Shown piece after piece: positions 7,931-37,700 of a stretch of DNA of 48,548 bases (position 1 is the first letter of the stretch; each line of letters begins with the position of its first letter). Origin of the DNA: Chloroflexota bacterium (GTDB lineage Bacteria; Chloroflexota; Anaerolineae; Aggregatilineales; J027); contig RFGP01000077.1 in NCBI GenBank assembly GCA_003697365.1, positions 1-48,548 on the forward strand, written 5' to 3'. The notes under the pieces are model-generated. The model ran no database searches and had not been told where the DNA came from. It saw nothing but the letters and a program-made list of their open reading frames with translations. The position numbers and the translations under genes were made by a program.

Positions 7931-10084
7931 ATGTCGTTATTGAAATACGTTGTGTGTCGTAATTGTGGGCATAAAATGCCCCCTGATCCACTAACTAAAA
8001 AATGTGATCAATGTGAAGGGCAATGGCTCATTGCAGAGTATGATCTCGAACAGGCAAAAGAAATTTGGCGTTCTGATGCTTTTCAAGGGCGGGAACTATC
8101 CTTATGGCGTTATATGGAGTTATTGCCTACTTCAGACCCGGGATTTGATGTTTCTATGGGGGAAGGCTGGACTCCTCTAGTGAAAGCGGCTCGTCTGCAG
8201 CAAGAATTAGGGTTGGCGAATTTATGGATCAAAGATGAGCGTCAAAGCCCAACGGGATGTTTCAAGGATCGGCAAGCTGTTTTGAATATTGCTCACTATA
8301 AAAAAGTGGGTATTGAAGAGGTGGTGTTGGCTTCAACAGGAAACAAAGCGACAGCTTTTGCGGCATATTGCGCGCGTGCCAATATTCGCGCATGGGTTTT
8401 TTTAACCAGTGCTGTGCCTAACGAAAAATTAAGAGAATTAGGACTTTATGGGGCTGAGGTTGTCAAAATCGCTGGCACCTATGATCAAGCCAAGCAAGTT
8501 GCTAAAGATTTTGCGGCACGTCGTAATTTATTACTAGAGGGAGGAGCCAAAAGCATCTTAAGCCAAGATGGCATGAAAACCCTTGCTTTTGAAATTGCCG
8601 AACAGCTAGCACGTTATGCACCTGTTGAAGATGGAAAATGGCGTGCTCCTGACTGGTACATTCAAGCGGTAAGTGGTGGCATCGGCCCAATAGCAGTTTG
8701 GCAAGGGTTTAAGGAACTGTTGGCTATGGGGCTGATAGATCGCTTGCCCAAGATTGGCGTAGTGCAAGTTGAGGGATGTGCACCAATGGTAACGGCGTGG
8801 CAACAAGACCTAGAAGAAGCTGAGCCTGTGGTGCCACGTACAAGAATTGCGGTATTGGCAACAGGTGACCCCGGACAAGGCTATAAAATATTGCGTCAAG
8901 CCTGCAAGGAAGGTGGCGGTACGATGATCTCAGTGAGTGATGGCGAAACATTTCGCGCGATGCGTCGCCTAGCACGGGTAGAAGGATATAGCATGGAACC
9001 CGCCACTGCGGTTGCTTTTGCTGGGCTTGAAAAATTGGTGCAAGAGGGGCTTATCCAAACTGATGACTATGTAGTAGTTAATTGTTCTGGACATACTTTC
9101 CCCGCAGAAAAACATGTTCTAGAGGATCAGTATGTTCTTGACTTGCAGTTAGGACAATTAGACGAGGATACGCAAGCAGTTTCGCACCGCAGTATTGAAG
9201 AAGGCATTGAGTCTGCTCTTGCTACGCTTGATGAACAAGTTACTACTGTTGTGATTATTGATGATAACCCTCAAGATAGCCGACTTATTCGGCGTTTGCT
9301 TCAAACCTATAAGAATTATCGTGTTTTTGAGGCGAATGACCCACGCGATGGCTTCGAGTTGATTAAGCAGCGTAAACCCGATCTTATTGTGACGGATTTA
9401 ACTATGCCTGATATGGATGGCTTTGAGCTGATCGATGCTTTGAAGCAAGACCCTAATGTTCGTGATATTCCGGTTGTTGTCATCTCTGCAAAAACGTTGA
9501 CCCCAGAAGAGCGCCAAAAACTGGAAAGCCAAACAGAATCACTTTGGCAAAAGGGCAGTTTTAATACACGAGAACTGGTCGATCATGTCGTGAAAACTTT
9601 GGGCGTAGAAAATGGGGAAGAAATACCTTCTGAAGATACCCCCGTCACAACTACAGTTGGGAAGATTGCTAGTGGAGTGCAACAGGTTATTGAGCAAATA
9701 ACCCCTTCTACAGTTATGGTAATCGATGATAACCGACGCGATGCGCGTCTTGTGCGGCGTATTCTTGAGGCAACGAAGCGCTATCATGTCATTGAAGCCT
9801 ATACAGCTGAGGAGGGCCGTCAGCTAATTGACGAACATCACCCACGTTTAGTAGTCTTGGATATACTATTACCTGATTTAAATGGGCTCGATTTCTTAGC
9901 TCAATTACGCCAAAACGAGAAACATAAGCAATTGCCTGTCGTAATTTTAACGGCTAAGGAATTAACAGCTGACGAACGAGAGCGCTTTGAAAAACTGAAT
10001 TGTTCAATTTGGTATAAGCTCCAATTAGATCGTCAACAATTGGTGGAGCATGTCGACAAGATTATAAATATGCTTAAGTCATAA
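7931..10084 (+). CDS. threonine-synthase-like PLP enzyme (fold type II) fused to two C-terminal receiver domains
   Basis: N-terminal CxxC...CxxC, SLWRYMELLP, SMGEGWTPL, PTGCFKDR (PLP Lys), ASTGN, MEPATAVAFAGL. REC1: IIDD, VTDLTMPDMDG, ISAK. REC2: VIDD, VLDILLPDLNG, LTAK. Confidence 0.9.
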   Translation: MSLLKYVVCRNCGHKMPPDPLTKKCDQCEGQWLIAEYDLEQAKEIWRSDAFQGRELSLWRYMELLPTSDPGFDVSMGEGWTPLVKAARLQQELGLANLWIKDERQSPTGCFKDRQAVLNIAHYKKVGIEEVVLASTGNKATAFAAYCARANIRAWVFLTSAVPNEKLRELGLYGAEVVKIAGTYDQAKQVAKDFAARRNLLLEGGAKSILSQDGMKTLAFEIAEQLARYAPVEDGKWRAPDWYIQAVSGGIGPIAVWQGFKELLAMGLIDRLPKIGVVQVEGCAPMVTAWQQDLEEAEPVVPRTRIAVLATGDPGQGYKILRQACKEGGGTMISVSDGETFRAMRRLARVEGYSMEPATAVAFAGLEKLVQEGLIQTDDYVVVNCSGHTFPAEKHVLEDQYVLDLQLGQLDEDTQAVSHRSIEEGIESALATLDEQVTTVVIIDDNPQDSRLIRRLLQTYKNYRVFEANDPRDGFELIKQRKPDLIVTDLTMPDMDGFELIDALKQDPNVRDIPVVVISAKTLTPEERQKLESQTESLWQKGSFNTRELVDHVVKTLGVENGEEIPSEDTPVTTTVGKIASGVQQVIEQITPSTVMVIDDNRRDARLVRRILEATKRYHVIEAYTAEEGRQLIDEHHPRLVVLDILLPDLNGLDFLAQLRQNEKHKQLPVVILTAKELTADERERFEKLNCSIWYKLQLDRQQLVEHVDKIINMLKS

Positions 10085-10135
10085 GTAGAAGCGAAATGCT
10101 TTGTTATGTACTTCGGTTGAAAGTTGAGAAGGATT

Positions 10136-10504
10136 ATGCCAAAACGCATTTTGTATGTTGAAGATAACTTACACAATAAACGCTTGGTCAGAAAAATCTT
10201 GCAGTCACGTGGGTATGAAGTTTTAGAAGCCGAAGATGGACATACTGGCGTTGAAATGGCAATGTCAGAATTACCTGATCTGATCTTGATGGATATAAAT
10301 ATTCCCGGCCTTGATGGTATTGAGGCCACGCGCATGATTAAGGCCTATCAGCAAACAGCGCATATACCAATTATTGCCTTAACTGCAAATGCAATGCGTG
10401 GAGATCGGGAACGTTTTATATCAGCAGGATGTGATGACTATTTACCCAAACCCATCAGTACGGCAGATTTGCTGGCATTAGTGAAACAATATTTGAGCGA
10501 ATAA
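10136..10504 (+). CDS. single-domain response regulator (DivK/CheY-like)
   Basis: ILYVEDN, DLILMDINIPGLDG, IIALTANAMRGD, DYLPKP; ATG at 10136 after GAAGGA. Confidence 0.93.
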   Translation: MPKRILYVEDNLHNKRLVRKILQSRGYEVLEAEDGHTGVEMAMSELPDLILMDINIPGLDGIEATRMIKAYQQTAHIPIIALTANAMRGDRERFISAGCDDYLPKPISTADLLALVKQYLSE

Positions 10505-16521: not shown

Positions 16522-17046
16522 TTATCGCAGATTTTTCTCTAATATCCAACAAGGCTCGTGCATTTGCACAACTTCGCCACGATGGTTCATGTATTGCCAG
16601 CGTCCTTCATCTTCACCTATAACATGATACCCCAACCTTTCATAAAGTTGACGGGCACGAATATTGGTTTTTGCTGCTGAAATCATAGCGATTTCAAAAT
16701 CACGTTCAATAAGATTTTGTTCAGCATAGTGAATGAGACGAGTGCCAATACCAAGTCCTTGCAAATGTTCCATAACGCGCAATGCATAAAGATAGCCGCG
16801 CTTATGCTTTTCTTGGTTGTGCCCTAAGGCGAGATGTAAAAATACTTGCCCTATAGGAAAGTTGTTTAATACTGCAACTAACATGAGCCGCCGACCGATA
16901 CAATGTTCTTCATATGTCCGCGCATAGACGTTGCGGAAATGTGTATACTGCCCATACCACTCAAGTTTAGGTAAGTCTTCTGGCACGAGGGGGCGCAAGG
17001 TGATCATCAAATTTATGGAAAAGATACTAGCTTGTTGTGCCATCAT
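16522..17046 (-). CDS. GNAT family acetyltransferase
   Basis: LYALRVMEHLQGLGIGTRL and NIRARQLYERLGY. Confidence 0.88.
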   Translation of the reverse strand: MMAQQASIFSINLMITLRPLVPEDLPKLEWYGQYTHFRNVYARTYEEHCIGRRLMLVAVLNNFPIGQVFLHLALGHNQEKHKRGYLYALRVMEHLQGLGIGTRLIHYAEQNLIERDFEIAMISAAKTNIRARQLYERLGYHVIGEDEGRWQYMNHRGEVVQMHEPCWILEKNLR

Positions 17047-19679
17047 AATTTTTGGTGTTTGTTAATCAATTGCTCTAAATATGCTGTTTCTTCATCAACC
17101 GATTGAATTTCACCATCTAACCAAGCACTGCGTAGGCGGCGTAATATATCACCAATAATTGGGCCGGGCGGTATCCCCATAGCTTTTAAGTCATTACCAT
17201 TAACAGTTGGGTGAACATATCGCCATGTTGTTATATATTGCTCAATAGAATAGCGTTGCACATCGTTTTCAGCAATTGTCCATAAAACTATCCATGCGAG
17301 AGGGGGTAATGAACCTAAATATTCGACAACTTGACTAGGATGCATATTAGGTAGTTGGGAGAGCTGAGGTATCGCTTGGTGAATGGCGAGCAGTGTATTT
17401 TCTAATGTACGTCCAATCATCAAGCGTTCTGACCATGCGCGGATTTGATCAGAAGAACATCGAATGATCAATAATGTGGCTTGGGCAGCGATCCAGTCAA
17501 TATTTAGTTCTAACCAAGAGGGTTGAGTCTGTGCGCTGCGCAATAGGTTATATTTTTCGATAAACCAATCATCGATATGTATGTTTGGAAAAATAGTATT
17601 TAAAATACCTAGTTGCTCTAAGCGTTGTAAACCACGTAAGGGCTCTTTTTCCTCTAATAAATGCCAAAGTTCATTGCGAATACGTTCGCCTGTGACACGA
17701 TCAAGAAAAGGAAGCGCATTTTCTAAAAGGTTTAATGTGCGGGGTTCTATGTTGAAATTGAGCCGCTGCTCGAAGCGAACTGCCCGTAACATGCGAGTAG
17801 GGTCATCAATAAAACTATGGCTATGAAGTACACGGATAATTTTATTTTTGAGATCGCGCTCTCCATTATAAAAGTCTATGAGCATTCCCATTGGCGGAGG
17901 CGATAAGCGAATCGCCATGCTATTAATAGTGAAGTCACGCCGATGTAGGTCTTGTTTAATAGAGCTTTGGCGTATGGTGGGCAATACGCTAGGTTCTTTA
18001 TAAAACTCTGCGCGTGCAGTTGCGAAGTCAATGAACTCAACGCCGCCTGTGTTATCATCTAAGCTCAGGTCAAGTGCCTTTATGACATCTCGATTAATGA
18101 TCCATTTTGCCGTGCCAAATTGGCGATGAATATGTAAATGTCCACCTAATGCTTTTTGTATGCTATCAGCAAAGGCGATAGCATCACCTTCAATAACAAT
18201 GTCAATATCAAGATTGGGAATATCTAACAGTAAATCGCGAACGAGTCCACCCACTAAATAAATATCTAGATCATCAGCCTGAGCTTTATGGGCAATATAC
18301 GTCAATAATTCCCACAGTGCTAATGGCAGCATATTTTGTAAACGTGACATGAGCATATGTTGTTGATGTTGGCTGCGTGGCGGCATTCCCCATCGGCGAA
18401 TGAGATCAGTGCGTGTAACAATGCCGACTAAACGCTCATTTTCATCGAGGACAGGCATTTGCCCCCAACCCGTATCCATCATTTTTTGACGCAAAACTTC
18501 TAGTGAGTCATTAGGATGTACGTAGATGTTAGTCCCTGCTTCCATCAAATGTCGGACTGGCTGCTGTGGCATATGATGGGCGAGTGCTCGATCTACAGCT
18601 CTACGAGTTAATAAACCCACTACACGCTCACCATCCAAAACTGGATAGCCTTCATGACCCGATATTTGCATCTTTTTTGCTGCTTCTTCGGCAGTAGCGT
18701 CAATGTTAATTGTTTCAATTGGGCCAACAGACATGAGATCTGCAACAGTTATGCTAGGCGTAATGACTTTAGGGAGAGTTTCGCGCACCTTCTTTAAGGC
18801 AGCGTTCAAATCCGTTTGGCGTAATAAGGCAGCTGCTGCGCGTACATGTCCACCACCGCCTAAGGCTTTTGCTAATTGCCCAACATCCACTTCATCAATC
18901 GTACTTCTGGCAACAAGTTGTACATCATTTCCCATTTGAATGAGCAAAAACAAGGCATTAGGATCATAAAGATTCATCATATGATGAGCAAGTCGAGAGA
19001 CCCCTTCTACTTGTTGCTCAACTTTTGCTGTTGCGAGCAAAACAACATGACCGCCAATGATCTCTATTGTTGCTGATTGCCGAAGCTGATCGTAGATATG
19101 CCAATGGGTTTCTTCAAGCGGATAAGTTAAAAATTCACGCAAAATATCAAGGCTTGCATTATTTTCTAGCAACCATGCTGCTGCTAAGACATCACGCACT
19201 GTGGTGCCGCCATAGGTTAGACTACCGGTATCTTCATAGATTCCTATTAGCAACATTGTTGCTTCAAGCGAGCTAAGCTCAATATTTTGTTGGCGAATGA
19301 GTTCAACAAGTAAGGTTGTTGTTGCACCTACTTCATCAATGAGCGTTGTATAGTGTGGGGGCAAATCCTCTCGACGTTGATGATGGTCGATAATATGAAC
19401 GGGTGTTGTATCTTTCAGGTGGGGGATAGTATGGAGTTTTTGAGTATCGACAAGATAAGCATATGTAAGTTCTAAATCGTCAGGTAATTCTGAATGTTGA
19501 ATCGCTGGCATGATGCCAGCATAAAGCGTTAAGAACTTTCGCACGTTTTGACGTAAGCGATGTGGCAATACAGGCACTGCAGTAGGATCAAGGCGATGCA
19601 TTGCCATAAGCGATGCCACAGCATCAAAATCTGCATTATTGTGCGTAAAAATCAAGCGTCGTAAATTCATTAGAACCAA
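17043..19679 (-). CDS. DHH/DHHA1-CBS-tRNA nucleotidyltransferase (A-adding-type architecture)
   Basis: HNNADFDA, IIDHH, GGGGH (DHH/DHHA1); a CBS pair; YLVGGLVRD..DIDI, DFATARAEFY, RRDFTINSMA, DDPTRMLRAVRF. Confidence 0.9.
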   Translation of the reverse strand: MVLMNLRRLIFTHNNADFDAVASLMAMHRLDPTAVPVLPHRLRQNVRKFLTLYAGIMPAIQHSELPDDLELTYAYLVDTQKLHTIPHLKDTTPVHIIDHHQRREDLPPHYTTLIDEVGATTTLLVELIRQQNIELSSLEATMLLIGIYEDTGSLTYGGTTVRDVLAAAWLLENNASLDILREFLTYPLEETHWHIYDQLRQSATIEIIGGHVVLLATAKVEQQVEGVSRLAHHMMNLYDPNALFLLIQMGNDVQLVARSTIDEVDVGQLAKALGGGGHVRAAAALLRQTDLNAALKKVRETLPKVITPSITVADLMSVGPIETINIDATAEEAAKKMQISGHEGYPVLDGERVVGLLTRRAVDRALAHHMPQQPVRHLMEAGTNIYVHPNDSLEVLRQKMMDTGWGQMPVLDENERLVGIVTRTDLIRRWGMPPRSQHQQHMLMSRLQNMLPLALWELLTYIAHKAQADDLDIYLVGGLVRDLLLDIPNLDIDIVIEGDAIAFADSIQKALGGHLHIHRQFGTAKWIINRDVIKALDLSLDDNTGGVEFIDFATARAEFYKEPSVLPTIRQSSIKQDLHRRDFTINSMAIRLSPPPMGMLIDFYNGERDLKNKIIRVLHSHSFIDDPTRMLRAVRFEQRLNFNIEPRTLNLLENALPFLDRVTGERIRNELWHLLEEKEPLRGLQRLEQLGILNTIFPNIHIDDWFIEKYNLLRSAQTQPSWLELNIDWIAAQATLLIIRCSSDQIRAWSERLMIGRTLENTLLAIHQAIPQLSQLPNMHPSQVVEYLGSLPPLAWIVLWTIAENDVQRYSIEQYITTWRYVHPTVNGNDLKAMGIPPGPIIGDILRRLRSAWLDGEIQSVDEETAYLEQLINKHQKL

Positions 19680-19682
19680 ATA

Positions 19683-20516
19683 TTATTGCGGAGTTGGTGG
19701 TCGATGGGGCTTTATGGGCGCTTGATTCGATTTAGTACTGCCAGTATTAGATTCCTCATCTGTTACTGATTTATTTTCTGTAGAAGGACTTGCTTCTGTT
19801 TTCTCTTCTTTGGCAACCTCAGGTTCACTAGATTTTGCGCTTGATGAAGAGGTTTTTTCCTCCTCTGCTGATTTACCGTTACTTTTGTCGCCTTTATCAA
19901 CAGCTTCTGGCTTTGTTTTTGTGTCTTCAGTAGCTGTTGGCGCTGATGTTGATTTTGGTGTTTCAGGTGTTTCAGGCGTTAAAGGTTTAGCAGATTCGCT
20001 TGCTTGTGTTGTTGCCGTTGTATCTACTGGCGCTGATGTTGCTTTTGGTGTTTCTTGAGCTTTGGGCTTTTCCGCCGTCGATACAGGTTGTTTATCTTCT
20101 GGTGATGTTTCAGTTGATGGTGGAGGGGTATGATTAGTTTTGGCTTGTTTCTTTTGCTGAATATCGTTAATTACGTCTGTAAGCAGATCTATATTGATCG
20201 GCTTATGTACAACATGATCAGCGCCCACTTCTTTACGACGATCTTCTAAATCTAGCGCATCATAAGCTGTGACAAAGATTATCGGCAAATCCTTTAATGT
20301 TTGATGTTCGCGCATCATCCGACATAGCTGAAAACCATCAAGTTGTGGCATCATGATGTCTAAGAGAGCGACATCTACTTGTTCTATCTCTGCAAGTGTG
20401 ATGGCTTCGGTTGAATTTAACGTTGTAACGGGCTCAAACCCTGTTAATTCTAACAAAACACGTAACAAGTTGAGCGTATCTAATTCATCATCTACGACAA
20501 GTACTTTGGTAGCCAT
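19683..20516 (-). CDS. response regulator receiver with about 150-aa low-complexity C-terminal tail
   Basis: VLVVDD, LLDIMMPQLDG, FVTA, HKP; tail rich in T/P/S/E/K with no recognisable output domain. Confidence 0.88.
   Translation of the reverse strand: MATKVLVVDDELDTLNLLRVLLELTGFEPVTTLNSTEAITLAEIEQVDVALLDIMMPQLDGFQLCRMMREHQTLKDLPIIFVTAYDALDLEDRRKEVGADHVVHKPINIDLLTDVINDIQQKKQAKTNHTPPPSTETSPEDKQPVSTAEKPKAQETPKATSAPVDTTATTQASESAKPLTPETPETPKSTSAPTATEDTKTKPEAVDKGDKSNGKSAEEEKTSSSSAKSSEPEVAKEEKTEASPSTENKSVTDEESNTGSTKSNQAPIKPHRPPTPQ
19938..20054. repeat. 27-bp direct repeat within the response regulator tail
   Basis: TGGCGCTGATGTTG(A/C)TTTTGGTGTTTC at 19938-19964 and 20028-20054; one mismatch, 90-bp period; encodes ETPK(A/S)TSAP. 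Confidence 0.85.
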
Positions 20517-21060: not shown

Positions 21061-22542
21061 TTATAAATAGTCTCGAAGATTATGGGCAATGCGTGGATGA
21101 CGCAGGCGGCGTAAAGCCTCTTTTTCCAATTGGCGAATGCGTTCTCGGCTAAGCCCAAATTTATTAGCGATTTCTTCAAGCGTATGCGGCTCGCCTCCGC
21201 CCAAGCCAAAACGTAATCGGAGGATATGGCTTTGGCGTGGCGTTAATTCACTCAACACTTCTTCGATAGTTTCTTGTAACAGGTTTTGTGTTGCCACTTC
21301 AACGGGGCTGGGCGAATCTCGATCCTCGATGAAATCGCCAAATTCACTATCACCATCATCGCCTACAGGGCGCTCTAGGGCGATGGCATGTTGGCTAGCA
21401 TCCATCATTGCACGCACATTTTCAGGCTGAACTTGCATAGCGCTGGCTATTTCCTCAGGTGTTGGACGACGGCCAAGCTCTTGTTCCAGTGTTTGAGCAA
21501 CCCGATACATCTGACGAATTCGCTCGGTCATGTGTAGCGGTATCCGAATGGTACGTGTTTTTTGTGCTAGGGCACGAGTGATGGCTTGGCGTATCCACCA
21601 AGTGGCATAGGTGCTAAAGCGATTGCCACGTTTATAGTCGTATTTATCAACAGCGCGCATTAAGCCAACGTTACCTTCTTGAATTAGATCAGGAAAGGGG
21701 AGCCCTTGCCCCATATAACGTTTCGCTATGCTGACAACAAGGCGCGTGTTGGCGCGTCCTAAATGTTCACGTGCTGCTTGGCCATCTTCAATGAAAACTT
21801 TAAGTAATCCCTTACTTTTTTCGATACCAATCAATGCAGCTTCAAAACCCATCGGCGCAAAAACACCATTTGATAAATCTTGTCGCAATAAATGATCGTG
21901 TGCCATTTCAACCCACATAAACTCATGACGGATGGGTTGAAGCACTGTATCTATATCTTGTAAGAGAGTATCGAACTCTTCTGCTACCCAAGGCGCTAAT
22001 TCGATGTCGTTGACATTTTCTACAATTTTACGAACTTCATCAAATACCCGTCTTATTGCGAGAATGTCTGCGCATACGGTAATGAATTCTTGTCGAAACT
22101 CTGTATGATGATGAAGAAGATGTATTTGGTTAAGAAGCGTATTGAGGCGGTGAATGTGGCCGAGTAGGTGATTGAGGTTGTCTTCTAGCTCAAATGCCAT
22201 TCTGCCTATTTCGATGCGTTTTGCTAATGAAATCTCGTCATCTGCAGTCAGAAGTGGCTCTTGAGCCATTTGTCGAAAATATAACCCTACAGGATCATCG
22301 GGAGAGACAGCATTAATATCGCCAATGTCAGGATCACGGAGGGCTTCACGATCAAAATCTTCGTCTAGCTCGATACCCGGATCGTCTTCATCCTGCCGTA
22401 ATTCGATCCCTAAATCATCTAATTCATCAAGGAGCGCTTCAATGGCAGCAACATCGTCCCCGTCTCCCTCTAATAATTCCAGCACGTCTTCGAGGGTTAC
22501 AAAGCCGCGCTGATCAGCTCGGTTCATGAGTTCTTGGATCAC
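21061..22542 (-). CDS. RNA polymerase sigma-70 factor, RpoD/SigA family
   Basis: Region 1.1 (RGFVTLEDV), 1.2 (DPVGLYFRQM..LLT), 2 (NTRLVVSIAKRY, DLIQEGNVGLMRAVDKYDY, FSTYATWWIRQAITRA), 4 (TLEEIANKFGLSRERIRQLEKEALRRLR). Confidence 0.93.
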   Translation of the reverse strand: MIQELMNRADQRGFVTLEDVLELLEGDGDDVAAIEALLDELDDLGIELRQDEDDPGIELDEDFDREALRDPDIGDINAVSPDDPVGLYFRQMAQEPLLTADDEISLAKRIEIGRMAFELEDNLNHLLGHIHRLNTLLNQIHLLHHHTEFRQEFITVCADILAIRRVFDEVRKIVENVNDIELAPWVAEEFDTLLQDIDTVLQPIRHEFMWVEMAHDHLLRQDLSNGVFAPMGFEAALIGIEKSKGLLKVFIEDGQAAREHLGRANTRLVVSIAKRYMGQGLPFPDLIQEGNVGLMRAVDKYDYKRGNRFSTYATWWIRQAITRALAQKTRTIRIPLHMTERIRQMYRVAQTLEQELGRRPTPEEIASAMQVQPENVRAMMDASQHAIALERPVGDDGDSEFGDFIEDRDSPSPVEVATQNLLQETIEEVLSELTPRQSHILRLRFGLGGGEPHTLEEIANKFGLSRERIRQLEKEALRRLRHPRIAHNLRDYL

Positions 22543-22794
22543 GAGCGTTCCTGCCTCCCTTTTAATGTATATATAACAGGGAAAAACTTGCCCATAAAAA
22601 AATCAACGTTCCAATATTTTTTTAGTACAATCAAAAATCATTGTAGCATAGTTTTAAAAGCAGGTGAAACTACTCTCACTTTGCCTCTCATTCTATATTC
22701 ATTTTTGTTGTGTGAAGAATTGGGTATTTATGCGGCAAACAGGCTATAATCGAGAACAAAATTTTACAAAAATTATGAATGAGGAAATTTCGTT

Positions 22795-23634
22795 ATGGAT
22801 ATTCGCGCTGTCAAGTTAGATGTTGCCGCATTACGCAATGGCCTAGCATGGGCACAAAGTTGGACCCATCAGCACATTCTTTGTCGTATTGGTGAAGGCC
22901 AGCTAACTTTTATGGTTGCTGAACGCGATGGTTTCTTGGCAGCTTGGACATGGAATGCTCCTGATCTGAGCAGTTCAGCATTTTTTCTCATTCCTCCATT
23001 TATTGCAAAGCTCCTTTCTTCGCGTGCTATGTGGGATGTGCGAGAACTGAAAGTAATGACTTATCGTAATGCTGTCGGTATGCTTTTGTCTGCGGACCAA
23101 CGCCAGCCTTTTCGACTGCAATGGCACTGGCACGCAACAGATTTCGCGAGCCCACCATACTTTAAACTAATGAGTCGTTTGCCTGATATGATGATCAGCG
23201 CGCCTTATGTCAATTTGGCAGATGTCATTCATCTTGCCATTGCCAATGTGTTGACTCCTAGCATTAATGAAGAAGGTGAGCCAGAACCAATGCCAAATGG
23301 CATTTTGATAGACTTTATGCCCGGCCAAATTAATATTGATGGAGAATCAATACATAGCCACACACAACAGCAGGCACGATATTATTTTAACCCCAAGATG
23401 TTAATTCGTGGCTTAGAAATTGTGCGTTCTTCACACTTAAGTTTTGCGATTCGTGAAGCTAAGCGAGCACAAAATGCTGTTTTGTACATGGCTTGCCAAC
23501 GTGAAGGTTGGCAAATCCATTGCGCGATTCAATCTGTGGGCGTAAGCCGCACAGCTACCCCGCCGCCTGTACAAATTCGTGAAACACGTCCCCCGATGCA
23601 AGGTGGCTCTTGGTTTAGAGGACGCGGTGACTAG
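22795..23634 (+). CDS. hypothetical protein, possible divergent two-domain DNA sliding-clamp fold
   Basis: Good RBS (GAGG). By-eye similarity to DnaN segments (ILCRIGEGQLTF, LIP, ATDF, NGILIDF, FNPKMLIRGL). The ORF is solid; the fold call is inference. Confidence 0.55.
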   Translation: MDIRAVKLDVAALRNGLAWAQSWTHQHILCRIGEGQLTFMVAERDGFLAAWTWNAPDLSSSAFFLIPPFIAKLLSSRAMWDVRELKVMTYRNAVGMLLSADQRQPFRLQWHWHATDFASPPYFKLMSRLPDMMISAPYVNLADVIHLAIANVLTPSINEEGEPEPMPNGILIDFMPGQINIDGESIHSHTQQQARYYFNPKMLIRGLEIVRSSHLSFAIREAKRAQNAVLYMACQREGWQIHCAIQSVGVSRTATPPPVQIRETRPPMQGGSWFRGRGD

Positions 23635-24526
23635 GCGATTTTTGCGTCGACGCTGGCGACTTTTAATGCTATTTATTGTTTTATCTTTAGGGCTTAGTAT
23701 TTGTGTCTCATGGAGCATCGGGGCGATTTCGGCTACAGCTTTAGTATATGCACCTTGCAATAATAACGGTATGTCACTTGATGACACGTATGAATGGGAA
23801 TCTTTCACGCTTTCGGCCCGCGATGGAGGACGTTTTAGAGGGTATTTCATACATGGCACGAATGGGGCAACGGTCATTTTTCCGCCTAATTTTACCGCTG
23901 GACGCAATAGTCGCCTTTTTGAAGCCTTGCCTTTTGTGGACGCTGGATATAACGTTGTAGTATATGAGTCAAGACGCTGTGCAAATATGGGGCCTTTGAG
24001 CTTAGGGTATGAAGAGGTCTCTGAAGTGGCCGATGTGCTTGATTATCTCGCGTTGCGTGGTGATGTTGATATGGCTCATATTGGGGTACATGGTTTTTCT
24101 TCTGCTGGGGCAACGGCGATTATGGCTGCTGCACAATATCCGCAAATTAAAGCAGTCGTTGCTGTAGGCAATTATGCAGATATGAATGCTATCCTAGATG
24201 CTGATGTTGAAGGGGTTCGACATTTTTTCTATATGTTATATCAACATGGCTTCCGTTTTACTTATCAGCTATGGGTTGGTAATTCACTTGATACTTTGAA
24301 GCCCATCGAAGTGATTGATCAAATTTACCCGCGTCCTATATTACTGATTTATGGTTCAGAAGAACCGGGCGCTCTCACAAGCGAAGCGTTGATGATGCGC
24401 GCCGATGAAAATGCTACACTGTGGATTCTTGAAGGAGAAGGGCATGGTAGCTATCGTAGGCGCACTGATTATAGCCAACGTACTATCGCTTTCTTCGATC
24501 AACATTTATTGGATACATTGCGCTAG
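23627..24526 (+). CDS. membrane-anchored alpha/beta hydrolase
   Basis: N-terminal TM; GVHGFSSAG nucleophile elbow, PRPILLIYG, GEGH; GTG at 23627 after AGAGGA. Confidence 0.85.
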   Translation: MTRRFLRRRWRLLMLFIVLSLGLSICVSWSIGAISATALVYAPCNNNGMSLDDTYEWESFTLSARDGGRFRGYFIHGTNGATVIFPPNFTAGRNSRLFEALPFVDAGYNVVVYESRRCANMGPLSLGYEEVSEVADVLDYLALRGDVDMAHIGVHGFSSAGATAIMAAAQYPQIKAVVAVGNYADMNAILDADVEGVRHFFYMLYQHGFRFTYQLWVGNSLDTLKPIEVIDQIYPRPILLIYGSEEPGALTSEALMMRADENATLWILEGEGHGSYRRRTDYSQRTIAFFDQHLLDTLR

Positions 24527-31144: not shown

Positions 31145-33622
31145 TCAATCTACTGGTGGGCATGGTGGGTCAAATTCGCCTACGACTGTATCCGCAACCC
31201 ACCCTTGAATGAGCTCGCCATCGCGTGTGAGCTCAATAAAGTACCACACGACCCCGTTTCTGTCGCGCTGCTGCTCGTATACATCTCCTCTTTCATTAGG
31301 GAAGAATGTTCCAATTACTGTGCCATTAGGGGTTTCGCGAATATTCACGCCACCCACCGATGATGTAAATACTTGGCAAATATACGTTCGTGGCGTAGCC
31401 GTTGCCGTAGGTGTAAAAGTACGTGTAGGGGTGGGCGTGCTTGTGGGTGGTCGATTTGTCGCCGTTAATGTTGCTTGTGCTTGCTGCGTTTGAACGAAAA
31501 ATCCTGTTGCTGCGGCGAAGGTTTGGCTAGCAATTTGAGTGCGTACCGCTGCTGTACTGGTTTGTTGACTTAAGAATGCGTCGCGTGTAGCCGTTAGATC
31601 GATTGCGCGTTGTTCAGTTGCACGCTGATTGGCTAGGTTGATCTCTTCTTGTGTAGCAGTATTGATCGCAGCCAAAGTTTGGGCCGTACTCGTGGCAAGG
31701 GCAAAAGCCGTTGCGGTTTGCTCTTCAGGGCTAAGCGGCGTATTTGTTGGTGTGCTAGTTGCGGTTGCGGTTGGTGTATCGCTCGGCGTACTGGTAGGTG
31801 ATGGTGTATCTGTGGCCGTTGCCGTAGCTGTCGCCGTGAAAGTCATCGTTCCAGTAGGGCTTGGGGTATCGGATGGGGCAATGACACCTAAAATGGGGGT
31901 GCGATTGATATAGCCAATTGCAGCTAGAATCATTAATAAAATAATCCCTGCTGCACCCCAACTCAAGAACCGTCGTTGACGCAATGCGCGCAACTCATTT
32001 TCTAGTCGTAAGATTTCGGTGCGTCGTCCCAATACGCGGAAAGGTTCTTCTTTACAAATAGCTAGCCAGCGAGCGGCCGCTTCTATGTCACGCCGATCTA
32101 AAGCTAACTCTACGCGCTCAATATGCCGACCTAATAGCTCACCCACAAGGTTTTGGTAGCGCGGGTCTTGGGCGAAATGGCGTAATCCCGATAGCATTTG
32201 CCTTGCTTGTGCAAGTTCATTGTCAAAATTTTGAGCAATAAGTCCTGATGCGCGTTCGATGATTTGCCGTCCTTCTCGCAATTCAGTTACTAGTTGCTCT
32301 GCTTGGCGTTTGCCAGCTATTGCTTCGCTGTCGGTTGGGTCAAGCCGCGTAGCCATTGTGAATAGCTCTAGGCTTTCTTCTGCTAAGCGATATTTATCTT
32401 CTAAGGAAGATACGCCTTCGATTCGAGAAAGAGTTGCTTGGCCTTGATCAATAAGTTGTGCCTTCACATTTTGTAGATGCGCATTTGTGTCATTGACCAT
32501 TTGTTGTAAGCGCGCGCTGCCGGGTAGAACTTGTCTTAGATTAGATAAGACCGTTAATAAGTTGACTAAGCCATCAGCACGTTCCATTAAAGAGCCGCTG
32601 ATCGTACTTAGGCGAATGTTGGCTTGGTCATATTGCTCTTGAATACGCTTGACGAGCTTTATACGCTCTTCGGCTTCAGGATTATTAGGCACTACTCGTA
32701 GCGAGCCTTCATATTTACTAAGCGCTTCTGACCATTCATCTGCTGCCAATAGCCGATCCCCGTCTGCCAAAAGCTGACGCGCTAACACGAGGTCTTGGAT
32801 TTCAAGCAGTGCTTGCTCTACATCTTTCCAACTACGAATGCCGCTGCGTTCGGCAATTTCGCGCGCTTCGCGATACAAACGTTCTGCTTCTTCATAGTTG
32901 CCAGCACGGACTAAAGAATTGGCTCTGTTATAAGCAACGCGCGCATCAAAAGGGATACGATGGTCAGGTACAATGCCCCGCATTAAGTTGTCTTCAGCTT
33001 TTTGTTTAAACTCTTGCGCTTGTTCGCTTTGTGGAAGTTGTTCTGCTAATTCAATAGTTCGCTCATAGTCGCCTGCGTAATAAGTAGAAGCAATTTCATT
33101 CAATAATTCTGCTTCATTTGTGGCATCTATAGACGTTGTGTTGGTTGAAGTTGTTGGGTCGGATGCTGAATCAGATGTTGTATCTTCACTTAATGTAAAG
33201 CCATAGCGTGTTGCCAGCCCTTGCACTTTAAGCATGTGTTGAGCACTACGTTGTGCTGCTTGGTGTAATAGCTCATGAATTTCGATGTTTTCAGGATCAA
33301 GCGCAAGAGCTTCGGCTAGAATGTCAATCGCTTCATCTAAATCGCGATCGTCACCCGCTATTTCAATGCGAATGCGCGCTTTTCTTATCAAACTGCGGAC
33401 TTGCCCTACGTTTGGGTTTGTTGCTGGAATTGCGCTGCGCTGTGCTAATTGACTGAAGAGCTCACGTGCTTCTGCTTCAAAGGGCGTATTTTTACTTTGT
33501 GTGAGTAAGTTACGCGCGAGTGCTTCTAGGTCTGCGACTAGCGTTGCTGAAGGTTCAGCTGGCATCATTTCAATTTGTTGACGTAATTCATTTAATGCTT
33601 GGCGTAAATCGCTCATTGACAT
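31145..33622 (-). CDS. TPR/helical-repeat protein with one TM, Thr-rich stalk and C-terminal SH3-like domain
   Basis: AIDILAEALALDPEN, YNRANSLVRAGNYEEAERLY; TM WGAAGIILLMILAAIGYI; TPTATAT repeats; VNIRETPNG..WYFI..GWV. Start is ATG 33622 or 33616; the ORF track gives GTG 33640. Confidence 0.82.
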   Translation of the reverse strand: MSMSDLRQALNELRQQIEMMPAEPSATLVADLEALARNLLTQSKNTPFEAEARELFSQLAQRSAIPATNPNVGQVRSLIRKARIRIEIAGDDRDLDEAIDILAEALALDPENIEIHELLHQAAQRSAQHMLKVQGLATRYGFTLSEDTTSDSASDPTTSTNTTSIDATNEAELLNEIASTYYAGDYERTIELAEQLPQSEQAQEFKQKAEDNLMRGIVPDHRIPFDARVAYNRANSLVRAGNYEEAERLYREAREIAERSGIRSWKDVEQALLEIQDLVLARQLLADGDRLLAADEWSEALSKYEGSLRVVPNNPEAEERIKLVKRIQEQYDQANIRLSTISGSLMERADGLVNLLTVLSNLRQVLPGSARLQQMVNDTNAHLQNVKAQLIDQGQATLSRIEGVSSLEDKYRLAEESLELFTMATRLDPTDSEAIAGKRQAEQLVTELREGRQIIERASGLIAQNFDNELAQARQMLSGLRHFAQDPRYQNLVGELLGRHIERVELALDRRDIEAAARWLAICKEEPFRVLGRRTEILRLENELRALRQRRFLSWGAAGIILLMILAAIGYINRTPILGVIAPSDTPSPTGTMTFTATATATATDTPSPTSTPSDTPTATATSTPTNTPLSPEEQTATAFALATSTAQTLAAINTATQEEINLANQRATEQRAIDLTATRDAFLSQQTSTAAVRTQIASQTFAAATGFFVQTQQAQATLTATNRPPTSTPTPTRTFTPTATATPRTYICQVFTSSVGGVNIRETPNGTVIGTFFPNERGDVYEQQRDRNGVVWYFIELTRDGELIQGWVADTVVGEFDPPCPPVD

Positions 33623-33626
33623 TTCC

Positions 33627-34745
33627 CTATGGGATAACACGCATATTCAAATAATCATTGATTGCTTTCATCAAGCGTCGGAGTTCAAATTCCATGTCTT
33701 CATTAATACCTTCAAGAATAGCAGCATCAGTGAGTAGATCGCGAGCTTCGCGAGCTAGCTCTGCGCTTTCACGCAATTTGCTTAGCCCATTACGAACGTA
33801 TTCACGCGCTTGGATAAGGGCAGGGTGGGTGACTTGAAAACGGAACTCCCATCCAAAATGAACTGCTGCTTGTTCTACGGTTTGCAAAAATTCCTCTGCA
33901 TTCGCAAAGTCTTGATGCGCCCCACGTTCTAATAGATCAATAATGGGTTGACTGAGCATCTCTCCCGAAAAGTCGAGATGTGTGACATCATTATACCGAG
34001 TGTCAACTTCCTGTTGGCTAGCAGGTTGTGGGCGCAATTCCCCACGTTGTGGCGACATGCCTGTGAAAATTGGGTATAGGATGCCAACGCATAGATTGTG
34101 AAGGTCTTTTCGCCTGAGGTTGTTTATTTGGGCATCATGTTGCTCTAATTGTTTTGAGCTATTCCAATCAATCACTCTTAACTTTTTACCATCCCAATAG
34201 ACATGCTCCAATTTGTGATCCATGTAAAAAATATAGTTTTCATGTGCTTCTAGGAGCATGTGGCCAAATTGCATCGCTAAATTTAAGCCCTCTTCAATAG
34301 GCAAGCGACGGCGTTGCCCACTGTTGTTTGTTTTCATGACATATAACAAATTCTGCTCACGTGGCAAGTATTCTAGGGCAATATAGGGTCGCCAGCCTTC
34401 ACTGTTGCGCGGAAAAAGATTTTCTTCAAAAGCGCGCCAGTCAGTACGTAGAGAGATAATCTCGCCATCAGGATATTCATTTGAGGATTGTATATAGCCA
34501 CAATCGTAATAGCGAATAGGTACAGGATTACGATCCAAGTTTTTTAATAGTCGCACTTCATGCGGAAAGGCTTTTGCCTCCCAGCGTGGAGCTTCATCTC
34601 TGGCGATGTGCTCTGGGCGCATAATTTTGAGGGCAACCTGCCGACCGTCGCGCAAGTCATGCGCTTCAAGGACTCGCGCATAGTGACCTAGAGCAAAAGT
34701 ATCAATAAAGTTGCCGAGTGCATAAACTTCTGTAATGGTTGGCAA
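33627..34745 (-). CDS. soluble atypical Ser/Thr kinase-like protein
   Basis: LGHYARV, VALK, HEVRLL, YIALEYL, catalytic loop YMDHKLEH, VIDWN; TTG start after AAGGAAG. Confidence 0.8.
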   Translation of the reverse strand: MPTITEVYALGNFIDTFALGHYARVLEAHDLRDGRQVALKIMRPEHIARDEAPRWEAKAFPHEVRLLKNLDRNPVPIRYYDCGYIQSSNEYPDGEIISLRTDWRAFEENLFPRNSEGWRPYIALEYLPREQNLLYVMKTNNSGQRRRLPIEEGLNLAMQFGHMLLEAHENYIFYMDHKLEHVYWDGKKLRVIDWNSSKQLEQHDAQINNLRRKDLHNLCVGILYPIFTGMSPQRGELRPQPASQQEVDTRYNDVTHLDFSGEMLSQPIIDLLERGAHQDFANAEEFLQTVEQAAVHFGWEFRFQVTHPALIQAREYVRNGLSKLRESAELAREARDLLTDAAILEGINEDMEFELRRLMKAINDYLNMRVIP

Positions 34746-34763
34746 AGTTTGCTTCCTTTACGA

Positions 34764-37700
34764 CTATTCAGCAGCAAATGTAAATTGCATGTCGAGAACA
34801 ATCACATATATACCACCGCGCGATGTATATAACACTGGTATCAGCGGCGTTCCTATTGGGTAGTTGGGCTCTGAAGTGCCTAATAATTGATCTTGGATAT
34901 ATAAGGACACTGTTCCATCGTCGTTACGTTCGATACGAATGTCAACGGTTACGCTTTCATCAGTAAAACTAGTACGTTCTCGATATTGATCATTTTCACG
35001 AATGCCCCATTCAATAACATTTGCGCGCGGTATGCGAATTTCAGCAGAAACACGTTCACGCTCTGTATTTTCTACACCCAAGCCAAAATGAATGCCATCT
35101 CCAATTCCTTGAGCATCACTTGGTAATGGTAAGGCAAGATTCATCTGTGCCTCAACAACCATTAAACGATTTGCCGCGTTCTCTGTCCCATAAAGGAGCG
35201 CAATATCGGACTGTTCTATTTTTACAACAACAGGGCCGCTTTGCCGACCTTCTGCTGAATAAAGCTGCCACGGACCACCTACGCTGGCGATAAAGCGCTC
35301 TTGTCCCCAACTATAAATGCCAGCATCACTTTGATTCAGCAATGCTAGTACATCAATTGTGAGGGAGTCAGTGGTTATGGGCACACTTTGCGTGGGAATG
35401 GGCGGGGGCAATGTTTGCGTGGGCGTTGCCGTAGGCACTGTTGCTGTTGGTGTGAGGGTTTGTGTGGGTGTTGTTGTTGGCAAATCTGTTGCCGTTGCCG
35501 TAGGAGAGATGGGCGTTTCTGAAGCTGTAGGCACTATGGTAGGAATATCTGTATTGGTAGGTACTATGGCAATTTCTACTTCTTTGGTGCTTGTGGGCGA
35601 AGTGATGACAGCTATATTAGATGAACCTTCATTTTTATTTGTATCATCACTGCTTCCGAAGCCTCCTAATCCTACAAAAGCGACAATTCCCAATAATACA
35701 ACAACAACAGCAATGATAATGCCATACGGTAGGTCATTACCTGTGGACTCATCGGTGAACTCTACGTCAGCGATAGGTTCATTTGCTATAAAAGCTGGTT
35801 GATCGGGTTCTTGTGGTGATTGATTGCTTCGACGTTGCCTACGTGGTTTAGGTTGTGTATCCAATTTTTCTGTTTCTGACACTTCTGGCTGGGCGATGGC
35901 AACGTGTCCTATTTCAGTATTAGTTGGTGGCGTTTCTGCTAGATTTTGCGTGACTTCGCGCCAAATTTGGTATAGGCGATAGATTGGGTGCCGATTAATG
36001 AACAAATTAGCAAAATGATTTTTAAAATCATTTAGTTTTTCTATTTTGGTAAGGGTTTCATCTGTGTATGTATTTTTCACAGCACGATACGTTGAAAGCC
36101 ATTGCTGGACTTGATGAGCATGGCTTGGCCCTAATTGTTGTTCTGTAGCAGAAACAATTCCGATGAGCGTTTCTTCAATGGTTTCGTTGGGCGGAATATA
36201 CTGACCGGGAGGCGGAACTTTGGTCGTGTGTGCAATTTCCTCTAAGCGCAGCTTAGCTGCTTGTAAATCGGCAGCAGTATCTCGTAAGCGCCGAAGTTTG
36301 ATACGCAAGTTATCGGTATCTATAGCGCTATTGGTATTTTCTTCTAGTTGTGAAATAGCTGTATCTAGTGCATCGCGTGCTGCCTTGAATTCCCCATCTT
36401 CCCAATGCCGAACGGCAACATCAAGTTGCCGAATGGCTAGCTGAAACTGAGGCACCCATTTTTCGGCAAGGGGTGTGTTCAGTAAGGCGCGAATCTTCAA
36501 TAAATCACTAACCGTTGTTGCATTCTCAAGGGCATTATGAAGCTGACTAACTAAAGTTTGCCCTGCTAGCTGCTCTTCTAAAATTTGAAAAAGTATATTG
36601 CTCTCAACATTAGGCAATGTTTTTTGAGCCGCATTTTGCCAAAAACGGGCACTATCAAGATCGTGTTCTTGAATAGCCATCATGCCCTGAAAAACATAAT
36701 GAAGGAACAAAATACGTATACTAATACTGCTATACTCTCGTAACGATTCTAGCAAGTCATCATTAAGAGATGCGAGATAATCTTGTTCGCTACGCATCTT
36801 TGCCGTGAATTGTTCAAGCGCTTGTTGTTCTTCTCGCGTAAAGAGTTCAACAACTGCTTGTTCGGCACGACGAGTACGCTCAAAACTGGTTTGTCCTTCT
36901 TGCTCTAGCCAGTGTATAGGAATTTTACAAAGCTCTGAGAGGCGTTTAATGGTTTGTGTCTCGCCGACTGAAGTGGTTAGTGAGAAAGCTCCTTCTGTTT
37001 TGTATTCAGCATCTCGAAACTTACCTTGATCCCAAAGTTGGTAGATTTCGATGAGCTTCGCCGAAAGTTCCACATTAGGGCCCAATTGTTCTATTTGAGC
37101 AGTTGTGCGGACTACATCAGCACGTTGACGTGCCCACTGCGCGATTTTTGTATTATAAGGAGCAATGAGGCGTGCTAGTCTTATGAGATTGGCTTTGGTG
37201 GCGGCGCGGTGTCCACTGATTAAAGCATCGCTTATTTGCTGCCATAATTCGGCGCTGGTTTGTAGCGTATTTAATGCTTCATTCAGTGCTTCATCTCTTA
37301 AATCCTGCGCGTAGGGGGATAAAATCCCGATGACGCGCTCAAACCAATCACCTAAGTTTGTGCCCTCAACATCTGGAGTAAAGTTGGCAACAGCTTCAAT
37401 TGCAAGGTGAATTTCTTCAAAATAATCATGTAGTTGTTTGAATAAGTTTTGCTTGGGGTCTAGCTGATATGCTGTTTCTAAGGACTCTGTTGCTTTATCA
37501 GGTTGGCTATAAACATTTTGCGCCGCAATATCTAAATTTTTGATAATGTATGTGATGATCTCTTGAGCGCGTGCTAAAACATCTAAAGTGCGTTCATGTC
37601 CAGCATAGACAATTGGTAACGATTCTAGCTGGTGATAACCATACGTATATATATCACGTACATATGTTAGGGTTAACTCTTCTGGAACAGTGTTTAGTTT

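Follow-up and report, generated by a model that had tools for sequence, protein, structure and literature searches.

The stretch of DNA analysed here, referred to below as the window, is the whole 48,548-nucleotide (nt) contig RFGP01000077.1 of a Chloroflexota bacterium (Anaerolineae; Aggregatilineales; J027). Near its middle lies an open reading frame (ORF) for a protein of 279 residues, P0001, that very probably adopts a two-domain DNA-clamp fold. According to the structural models described below, tandem domains and a conserved connector form a 251-residue core, and a tail that is predicted to be disordered follows it. A preliminary description of the window, made from the sequence by itself, had given the limits of this ORF exactly; the ORF starts with ATG. 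The genome to which the window belongs (G000; 3.12 Mb, 220 contigs, 95.9% complete) has a single copy of the gene, and the window stretch also occurs in hot-spring metagenome runs. The parts of the gene are collected in Table 1.

Table 1 Features of the clamp-fold gene and of the protein it encodes
Feature	Positions	Strand	Details
Shine-Dalgarno-like GAGGA	22781..22785	+	9 nt 5' of the ATG; read from the sequence
Clamp-fold ORF (P0001)	22795..23634	+	279 codons and stop; ATG start; read from the sequence
Predicted domain 1, residues 1-112	22795..23130	+	Two beta-alpha-beta-beta-beta units; DSSP of the model, predicted local distance difference test (pLDDT) 84-97
Predicted inter-domain connector, residues 113-133	23131..23193	+	Model and alignment; equivalent to the interdomain connecting loop (IDCL) of PCNA and the FPDY linker of DnaN
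Predicted domain 2, residues 134-251	23194..23547	+	Models, VIA-align and conservation
Predicted disordered C-terminal tail, residues 252-279	23548..23631	+	pLDDT 53-56
Conserved tail motif RETRPPMQGGSW	23578..23613	+	Consensus IRETRPPMxDGSW; alignment

A conserved and patchily distributed gene

The clamp-fold ORF encodes a genuine conserved protein. A word-indexed search of 5.8 billion clustered proteins gave 565 candidates, among which 34 relatives were recognised at E ≤ 0.001, most of them 264-285 aa long and with identities from 83% down to 34%. Among 1.84 billion representatives, an exhaustive HMMER search recovered 28, of which 19 were at E ≤ 1e-10. These include members of distant clades, about 25% identical and 257-272 aa long, and a few proteins of 320-417 aa, made longer by a low-complexity extension at the C-terminus. 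Source names exist for only some relatives; all of these are "hypothetical", and the organisms named are Anaerolineae, represented by metagenome-assembled genomes. One further match, P0059 (477 aa, with a Big_7 Ig-domain, E 8.5e-5), aligned over five short stretches only; it was judged spurious and kept out of the alignments.

Two alignments were made. The first contains 31 sequences of the window's clade and leaves out P0002, which is identical to the query, and the fragments P0010, P0023 and P0035; the second contains 15 sequences of the distant clade and leaves out fragments shorter than about 200 aa. There are 27 invariant columns in the 31-sequence alignment, many of them Trp, Phe or Arg, and the family motifs are RxGLxWAQSW, FFLIP, RLQW.W, AP..F..M...P, D..HLA.AN, YYF.P....RG.E..R and HCA..S. 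The first two of these motifs lie in domain 1, as does FRLQW.W, which occupies its last strand. In the connector, F117, P120, F123 and M126 are invariant and P130 is nearly so. Domain 2 comprises a poorly conserved part (residues 154-190), a strand and helix with YYFNP..RGLE, and last strands that carry HCA..S.

In every clade the protein finishes with a tail of low confidence, which has a conserved tip peculiar to that clade. The tips of the distant clade, DTQKLYPLP or DTQLLLPLSP, come directly after the last strand. In the long forms P0046, P0052, P0054 and P0057 (374-417 aa), an acidic, Pro/Ala/Glu-rich disordered linker of 100-150 residues leads to a conserved FDVPLD tip, a layout of core, linker and acidic tip that we find reminiscent of the C-terminal tail of single-stranded DNA-binding protein (SSB). 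The tail motif of the window's clade is unique in G000, with one match among 5,824 ORF pieces. We had considered it as a shared docking tag, an idea that was rejected since the motif occurs only once in the genome.

The clamp-fold family is rare, patchy and, as far as sampled, confined to the class Anaerolineae, where it is an accessory gene. Of the 401 genomes sampled from the class, 16 carry it (G000 among them), and the 274 high-quality genomes of that sample include 7 positives; it was absent from all 15 sampled genomes of the order's two other families. A phylum-wide sample of 401 genomes had a single positive, G000 itself, the other 400 being negative. By their titles, 12 of 14 contig loci are from Anaerolineae, Anaerolineales or Aggregatilineales, one is from Ardenticatenia, and one is assigned only to Chloroflexota. 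Two of the 16 positive genomes (G091 and G162) have two copies. The G091 paralogues (L066 1998-2777 and L067 1983-2786) are 40% identical, belong to two distant sub-clades and differ in their tails, which end in DTQKLYPLPP and DTQLLLPLSP; the distant clades therefore also reside in the class Anaerolineae. The viral contigs searched contained no relative of the clamp-fold protein.

Predicted fold and relation to known clamps

As judged from its sequence, the clamp-fold family belongs to no known family. The query had no match at E ≤ 10 in Pfam-A or NCBIfam, and this holds for the DnaN models PF00712, PF02767 and PF02768, for the NCBIfam models of DnaN, and for sequence models of PCNA or gp45, no Pfam match of any kind being obtained. 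When all 31 members were compared with Pfam, neither the three DnaN models nor any other clamp family was matched, and the five families that did appear are unrelated, the best at E 0.048; a scan of 16 distant members gave nothing above noise. PDB sequences gave no match by phmmer or by profile, even at E ≤ 10. The best BLASTP E value was 0.27 against E. coli DnaN and 0.081 against the DnaN of the same genome. Since no Pfam family matches, nothing points to an enzyme.

An AlphaFold2 model of P0001, built from the 31-sequence alignment, has a mean pLDDT of 81.7 and a predicted template modelling score (pTM) of 0.78. DSSP assigns to it four successive beta-alpha-beta-beta-beta units, in residues 1-112 and 134-251, on either side of the connector. 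Its low-confidence parts are residues 154-190 and the tail. A replicate AlphaFold2 model of the distant member P0039 (about 25% identical), built from the separate 15-sequence alignment, has the same topology with pLDDT 86.4 and pTM 0.83, and reaches pLDDT 85-94 where the P0001 model is weak. Both models thus show the two-domain, PCNA-sized DNA-clamp fold that the preliminary description had proposed, and its estimate of a core of about 250 aa agrees with model residues 1-251.

Structure comparisons were led by clamps throughout. Foldseek returned at least 500 matches in the PDB at E ≤ 0.001, the best at E 3e-8. Among the best 38 of these at least 500 rows, 37 are named DnaN, PCNA, UL44 or 9-1-1 entries, and the remaining one, 5x06_A, bears the uninformative title "DNA replication regulation protein"; template modelling scores (TM-scores) normalised to the query were 0.41-0.54. 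VIA-align, which is independent of Foldseek and was run against 48,161 representative chains, placed P0001 on residues 127-374 of the DnaN chain 8dt6_A with Z 16.4 and a root-mean-square deviation (rmsd) of 4.7 Å over 218 aligned residues, and on whole PCNAs with Z 13.6-14.2 over 206-218 residues. Rows 1-39 are all clamp-fold proteins; the next row is a de novo design at Z 7.0, after which Z falls below 5. For P0039, the best match was again 8dt6_A (residues 123-374, Z 16.7), PCNAs reached Z 15.0, and 39 clamp rows came first, followed by rows with Z ≤ 4.5. The viral library BFVD gave phage DnaN, viral PCNA, herpesvirus processivity factors and poxvirus VLTF-1 (best E 6.7e-10), all of them remote (TM-score ≤ 0.55, about 10% identity). 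In an ESM Atlas feature search, which we treat as a lead only, the rank-1 cluster (score 0.91) was of the DnaN N-terminal-domain type, with PF00712 on 33% of its members.

In these models the core matches a single protomer of PCNA or gp45 in size and curvature and superposes best on DnaN domains II-III. VIA-align maps residues 1-250 contiguously onto DnaN residues of about 122-374, which correspond to domains II-III, or onto whole PCNA; one row maps them onto domains I-II. A weak hhalign alignment is likewise collinear, placing query residues 23-219 on DnaN 149-350, and it puts the connector on the DnaN II-III linker FPDY..IP. The preliminary description had supposed a junction between the first half of domain II and the second half of domain III. 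The alignments by both structural programs, like the weak profile alignments, run contiguously over domains II-III, so that a jump from one domain into the other is unnecessary. The register of the modelled structure favours a DnaN II-III-like origin, which sequence alone cannot prove.

The clamp comparison had originally been drawn from five pairs of short peptides. The query peptides lie where they were said to lie (residues 6-17, 27-39, 106-117, 168-179 and 196-210), their DnaN counterparts had been given accurately (E. coli K-12 DnaN, starting at residues 3, 32, 106, 156 and 317), and in the model they fall on matching types of element: strand plus helix, hairpin, last strand of domain 1 plus connector, hairpin, and strand plus helix. 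The sequence resemblance itself did not hold up, being mostly at chance level. Ungapped BLOSUM62 scores for pairs 1-5 are -1, 22, 0, 15 and 7, with identities of 2/12, 3/13, 3/11, 3/12 and 3/15, and a segment scoring at least as high was present in 200, 3, 200, 58 and 194 of 200 shuffled DnaN sequences, respectively; only pair 2 (query 27-39 and DnaN 32-44) stands out. The right topology had been read from statistically non-significant similarities.

A canonical dnaN with all three Pfam beta-clamp domains (PF00712, PF02767 and PF02768) and thousands of orthologues is located on another contig of the genome, C47; it encodes 394 aa from the first TTG, and the database cluster form has 381 aa. 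Because this three-domain dnaN is present elsewhere in the genome, the clamp-fold protein is not the replicative clamp, and the earlier view of it as a paralogue-like chromosomal gene was borne out. As a side observation, a 210-aa ORF piece on contig C12 (about position 8991, minus strand) ends exactly in QLSLF, the canonical clamp-binding pentapeptide; the ORF piece is presumably a client of the real DnaN of this genome.

The predicted protein resembles DnaN domains II-III in its fold, with the best structural match (Z 16.4 and 16.7) extending over about 220 residues, and both are bacterial and chromosomal. There are also echoes of DnaN motifs in an IP-plus-helix element of domain 1, the FPDY-like connector, and an FN-plus-helix strand of domain 2. 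In contrast to the three domains per chain of DnaN (about 366-381 aa; 381 aa in the cluster form), the clamp-fold protein has two domains in its core of residues 1-251, to which a disordered tail with a motif of its own is added. DnaN is universal and single-copy and is typically encoded in a dnaA-dnaN-recF neighbourhood, whereas the clamp-fold gene was found in 16 of 401 genomes and adjoins a sigma-70 gene and a hydrolase gene rather than dnaA or recF. Since two copies would provide only four domains, a DnaN-style dimer of the clamp-fold protein cannot give a six-domain ring.

PCNA and phage T4 gp45 consist of two-domain protomers that form homotrimeric rings. The clamp-fold protein is like them in domain count, size and connecting loop, and aligns with them over its whole length (Z 13-15 for PCNAs and 9.9-10.7 for gp45). 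It differs in being encoded in a bacterial chromosome instead of in archaea, eukaryotes or phages, in having no sequence match to either, in having no RFC- or gp44/62-type loader gene in its window, and in the poor conservation of the region of the C-terminal domain that would correspond to the ring-closing strand. The 9-1-1 proteins Rad9, Hus1 and Rad1 also have two-domain protomers (Z 12-14) and make up an accessory clamp beside the replicative one; they are three paralogues with a dedicated loader, compared with one clamp-fold copy in G000 and at most two in relatives. The herpesvirus factors UL42, UL44, BMRF1 and PF-8 share the two-domain clamp fold at Z 10.4-13.0. They bind DNA as monomers or dimers and need no loader for this. 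They are viral partners of a specific polymerase and score below the ring clamps, and the clamp-fold gene has no linked polymerase gene. In PMC9690074 and PMC3201878, the herpesvirus factors are described as working without a closed, loaded ring. As modelled, then, the clamp-fold protein folds like a clamp protomer but is neither a member of DnaN nor demonstrably a member of PCNA/gp45.

Possible roles of the clamp-fold protein

The role that we favour, tentatively and at somewhat less than an even chance, is that of a non-replicative adaptor or processivity-factor-like protein that would act without an obligatory loaded ring. Such a protein would have descended from a DnaN-like ancestor that kept two domains, and would serve as an accessory clamp-type platform and not as an enzyme. 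The connector and the inter-domain cleft would bind a partner peptide, the helix face could possibly bind DNA, and the C-terminal tail motif would tether the protein to a partner or to another copy of itself. Support for a platform with a tail comes from the invariant residues of the connector and from the C-terminal motifs, specific to each clade, that follow low-pLDDT linkers. Conservation is lowest (column mean 0.36) in domain 2 between strands C2 and E2, a segment that also has low confidence in the P0001 model; no third strand is predicted there by either model, and the hairpin that precedes the segment has a 7-residue deletion in 5 of 31 members. This weighs against a strictly conserved ring-closing interface, and we judge a non-ring adaptor to be more likely than a loader-dependent trimeric sliding clamp.

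Several results weigh against such an adaptor or against parts of the proposal. The clamp fold itself rests on predictions, with moderate TM-scores (0.41-0.55) and rmsd values of 4-6 Å. Homology to DnaN is not significant by sequence, an hhalign comparison with a DnaN profile giving a probability of 1-1.4%. The best pairs in a domain-wise profile matrix, domain 1 with DnaN-II (P 0.0025 over 75 columns) and domain 2 with DnaN-III (P 0.045), agree with the II-III register, but six reversed-profile controls reached P 0.017 at best, so that the margin of the first pair is slight. When the true domains of DnaN were set against one another, P was 1.4e-5, 0.073 (I-III) and 0.47 (II-III); because two of the three genuine pairs also fail, the silence of the sequence does not count against homology. 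Ring clamps score Z 13-16.7, compared with Z 10.4-13.0 for the non-ring herpesvirus factors, which favours a ring, as does the placement of the highest conservation on the last strand of domain 1, which is ring-closing in PCNA. The charge of the helices gives no argument against encirclement of DNA. With regard to a partner, the tail motif occurs nowhere else in the genome and no neighbour is kept across clades.

A rather unlikely alternative, although the strongest, is the idea that had been central to the preliminary description: a PCNA/gp45-style sliding clamp, homotrimeric or, where there are two paralogues, heteromeric, assembled head-to-tail around duplex DNA and existing beside DnaN. 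The protomer size and two-domain curvature fit this model, as does the alignment with whole PCNAs, and ring clamps outrank the non-ring herpesvirus factors in both VIA-align searches. The occurrence of two copies in 2 of 16 positive genomes, with the 40% identical G091 pair, is reminiscent of heteromeric clamps. Conservation at the putative ring interface is divided. In the window's clade, conservation is highest in FRLQW.W, the last strand of domain 1 (0.88; the four helices have 0.65-0.76), and we take this strand to be equivalent to the PCNA strand that forms the inter-subunit sheet at ring closure. The C2-E2 segment presumably has its equivalent in the PCNA strand to which the last N-domain strand of the adjacent protomer is paired, and it is this partner-strand region of domain 2 that is poorly conserved, of low confidence and next to the deletion. 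The evidence on ring closure therefore pulls in opposite directions. The four channel-equivalent helices have a family mean of 5.3 Lys/Arg and 2.8 Asp/Glu (net charge about +2.5), helix 3 being nearly without a basic residue, with Asp143 and His146 invariant. They are no less basic than the domain II and III helices of the lineage's own DnaN, for which we counted 6.7 Lys/Arg and 7.6 Asp/Glu in helix segments picked by eye, and with this yardstick we dropped the weak basicity of the helices as an argument against DNA binding. Against a sliding clamp, neither the window nor the surroundings of the related loci show an AAA+ clamp loader or other DNA-metabolism gene linked to the clamp-fold gene, and a patchy accessory distribution is unusual for a replication or repair clamp. 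A homotrimer prediction (three copies, 31-sequence alignment) that was run without controls gave scores of 0.01 and 0.22 against a mark of 0.42, and counts neither way.

Known sliding clamps follow two architectures: a dimer of three-domain chains in bacteria, and a trimer of two-domain chains in eukaryotes and some bacteriophages, as set out in PMC9690074, and in archaea, according to PMC3201878. A conserved chromosomal two-domain clamp-fold protein in bacteria, invisible to sequence models, misfits this scheme. We found no description of such a family in the open-access full-text literature, although a mention elsewhere is possible. A particular form of the ring model, which we consider unlikely, is a second clamp of PCNA architecture that would have arisen within bacteria from DnaN II-III, forming a trimeric or mixed ring whose tail would recruit a lineage-specific partner. 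If true, this would be the first cellular bacterial clamp with a 2x3 architecture and a living example of the transition from a dimer of three domains to a trimer of two, so far inferred from the comparison of bacteria with archaea, eukaryotes and phages. Ring formation by this family would mean that bacteria had invented the PCNA architecture independently, and would offer an accessible model for studying the evolution of clamp stoichiometry. If it does not form rings, the protein would be the equivalent, in cells, of the herpesvirus non-ring factors, or else a scaffold derived from a clamp. Both outcomes would widen the known uses of the clamp fold, and the new family, now "hypothetical" or unnamed in databases, could receive a profile. 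Its importance is limited by its presence in a few percent of Anaerolineae genomes, by its uncultured hosts, and by having no functional link so far.

It is improbable that the protein is a client or decoy of the beta clamp, with its tail docking in the peptide-binding cleft between domains II and III of DnaN or its own cleft sequestering clamp partners. The best structural match is to DnaN domains II-III, and the distant-clade tail DTQLLLPLSP contains QLLLPL, which fits the hexapeptide clamp-binding consensus QLxLxL. The tail of the window's own clade, RETRPPMxDGSW, is unlike the clamp-binding motif, whose pentapeptide form is given as QL(S/D)LF in PMC9690074. The conserved connector is also relevant in this respect, since clamp partners bind at IDCLs and in the pockets below them, as stated in PMC9690074.

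Less probable still is a signalling adaptor without a role on DNA, in which the clamp-fold body would be a scaffold in two-component signalling. This idea comes from the 46 metagenome loci of the distant clade, in one sub-clade of which a cytoplasmic GAF-HisKA-HATPase kinase gene directly precedes the clamp-fold gene in the same orientation, at a distance of about 0-25 nt. Of the 15 loci of this sub-clade with any gene upstream of the match on the ORF map, 14 have protein cluster c1 in the directly upstream position, and further PAS/GAF kinases and a receiver lie downstream. In the window, a receiver protein is encoded two genes away and a CheR-TPR protein two genes downstream. Cluster c1, however, mixes kinases, receivers and PAS/GAF proteins, and such genes are abundant, with at least four receiver proteins encoded in the window. 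The linkage is limited to one sub-clade (51-99% identity to P0039), and other sub-clades adjoin unrelated genes. Because it is no deeper than the incidental sigma-factor synteny described below, and because signalling genes are very common, we regard the kinase linkage as a lead of limited weight. The loci with this kinase (about 430 aa) include L030 (4684-6789), L033 (24-2120), L036 (3439-5642) and L040 (91-2270).

It is hardly credible that the clamp fold is an artefact of prediction, the true fold being a different one: the absence of a significant sequence match to any clamp family and the low confidence of part of domain 2 in the P0001 model would fit, but the two models from separate alignments agree, the weak region is well predicted for P0039, and two structure-comparison programs with three libraries give only clamps at the top, followed by a sharp drop.

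Neighbouring genes

As the preliminary description stated, the clamp-fold gene is divergent from a sigma factor gene, a full-length sigma-70 gene (21061-22542, minus strand) 252 nt away whose product has Pfam regions 1.1, 1.2, 2, 3 and 4. This sigma factor is 493 aa long, and about 145 residues between region 1.2 (83-115) and region 2 (263-331) are without a Pfam model. Downstream of the clamp-fold ORF are an alpha/beta-hydrolase ORF and a CheR-TPR methyltransferase gene. Read from its first GTG, the hydrolase ORF (Peptidase_S9/S15-like; 23579-24526, plus strand) overlaps the final 56 nt of the clamp-fold ORF. The hydrolase start is uncertain, since three of four relatives align only from residues 23-37 and the closest relative aligns from residue 2.

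Synteny with the sigma-70, hydrolase, CheR and UbiA genes was seen only in the four closest loci (53-83% identity), and the sigma factor link is therefore without functional weight. We rejected a functional link to the divergent sigma-70 gene, conceived by analogy with T4 gp45/gp55, since the synteny is missing from ten more distant loci. Members at 35-40% identity lie between SerRS and M20 peptidase genes on one side and a convergent group of RNase Y, RecX, receiver and Lon genes on the other, and other members adjoin a PP2C phosphatase gene or unrelated genes. In the distant clade, sub-clades other than that with the kinase adjoin genes for a STAND-subtilase-PD40 protein, an FGE-sulfatase-type protein, a trypsin-like protease, or ThyX and MiaA. 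A convergent downstream pair in distant loci had been considered as RNase Y and RecX (compare L008, L010 and L017); Pfam identified it as Trypsin_2 and an unknown protein. No operon partner is common to all clades in the loci compared, and we read the clamp-fold gene as a stand-alone accessory gene.

A phage or mobile origin, which the preliminary description had already discounted, was rejected, as there is no viral-contig relative and none of the scanned ORFs of the window is a phage-like, mobile or defence gene. The 31 other scanned ORFs are ordinary chromosomal genes (IleRS, Rpe, FolD, a fusion of DHH, CBS and CCA-adding domains, kinases, receivers and transporters).

A few of these genes were noted for their size or domain arrangement. 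The minus-strand gene at 19683-20516 encodes a response-regulator receiver (residues 5-116) that has no output domain; its remaining 160 or so residues are of low complexity and rich in Pro/Thr/Ser/Glu/Lys. The gene at 17046-19679 (minus strand) encodes an 878-aa protein in which DHH-DHHA1, two CBS domains and a poly(A)-polymerase/CCA-adding head domain are fused. At 7931-10081 (plus strand), a 717-aa fusion combines a pyridoxal phosphate-dependent enzyme domain (PALP, residues 74-387) with two receiver domains, and it is followed by a stand-alone receiver at 10124-10501. Three large genes at 31148-39083 (minus strand) encode an 831-aa TPR protein and two kinase-like proteins of 372 and 1439 aa, for which the Pkinase matches are weak.

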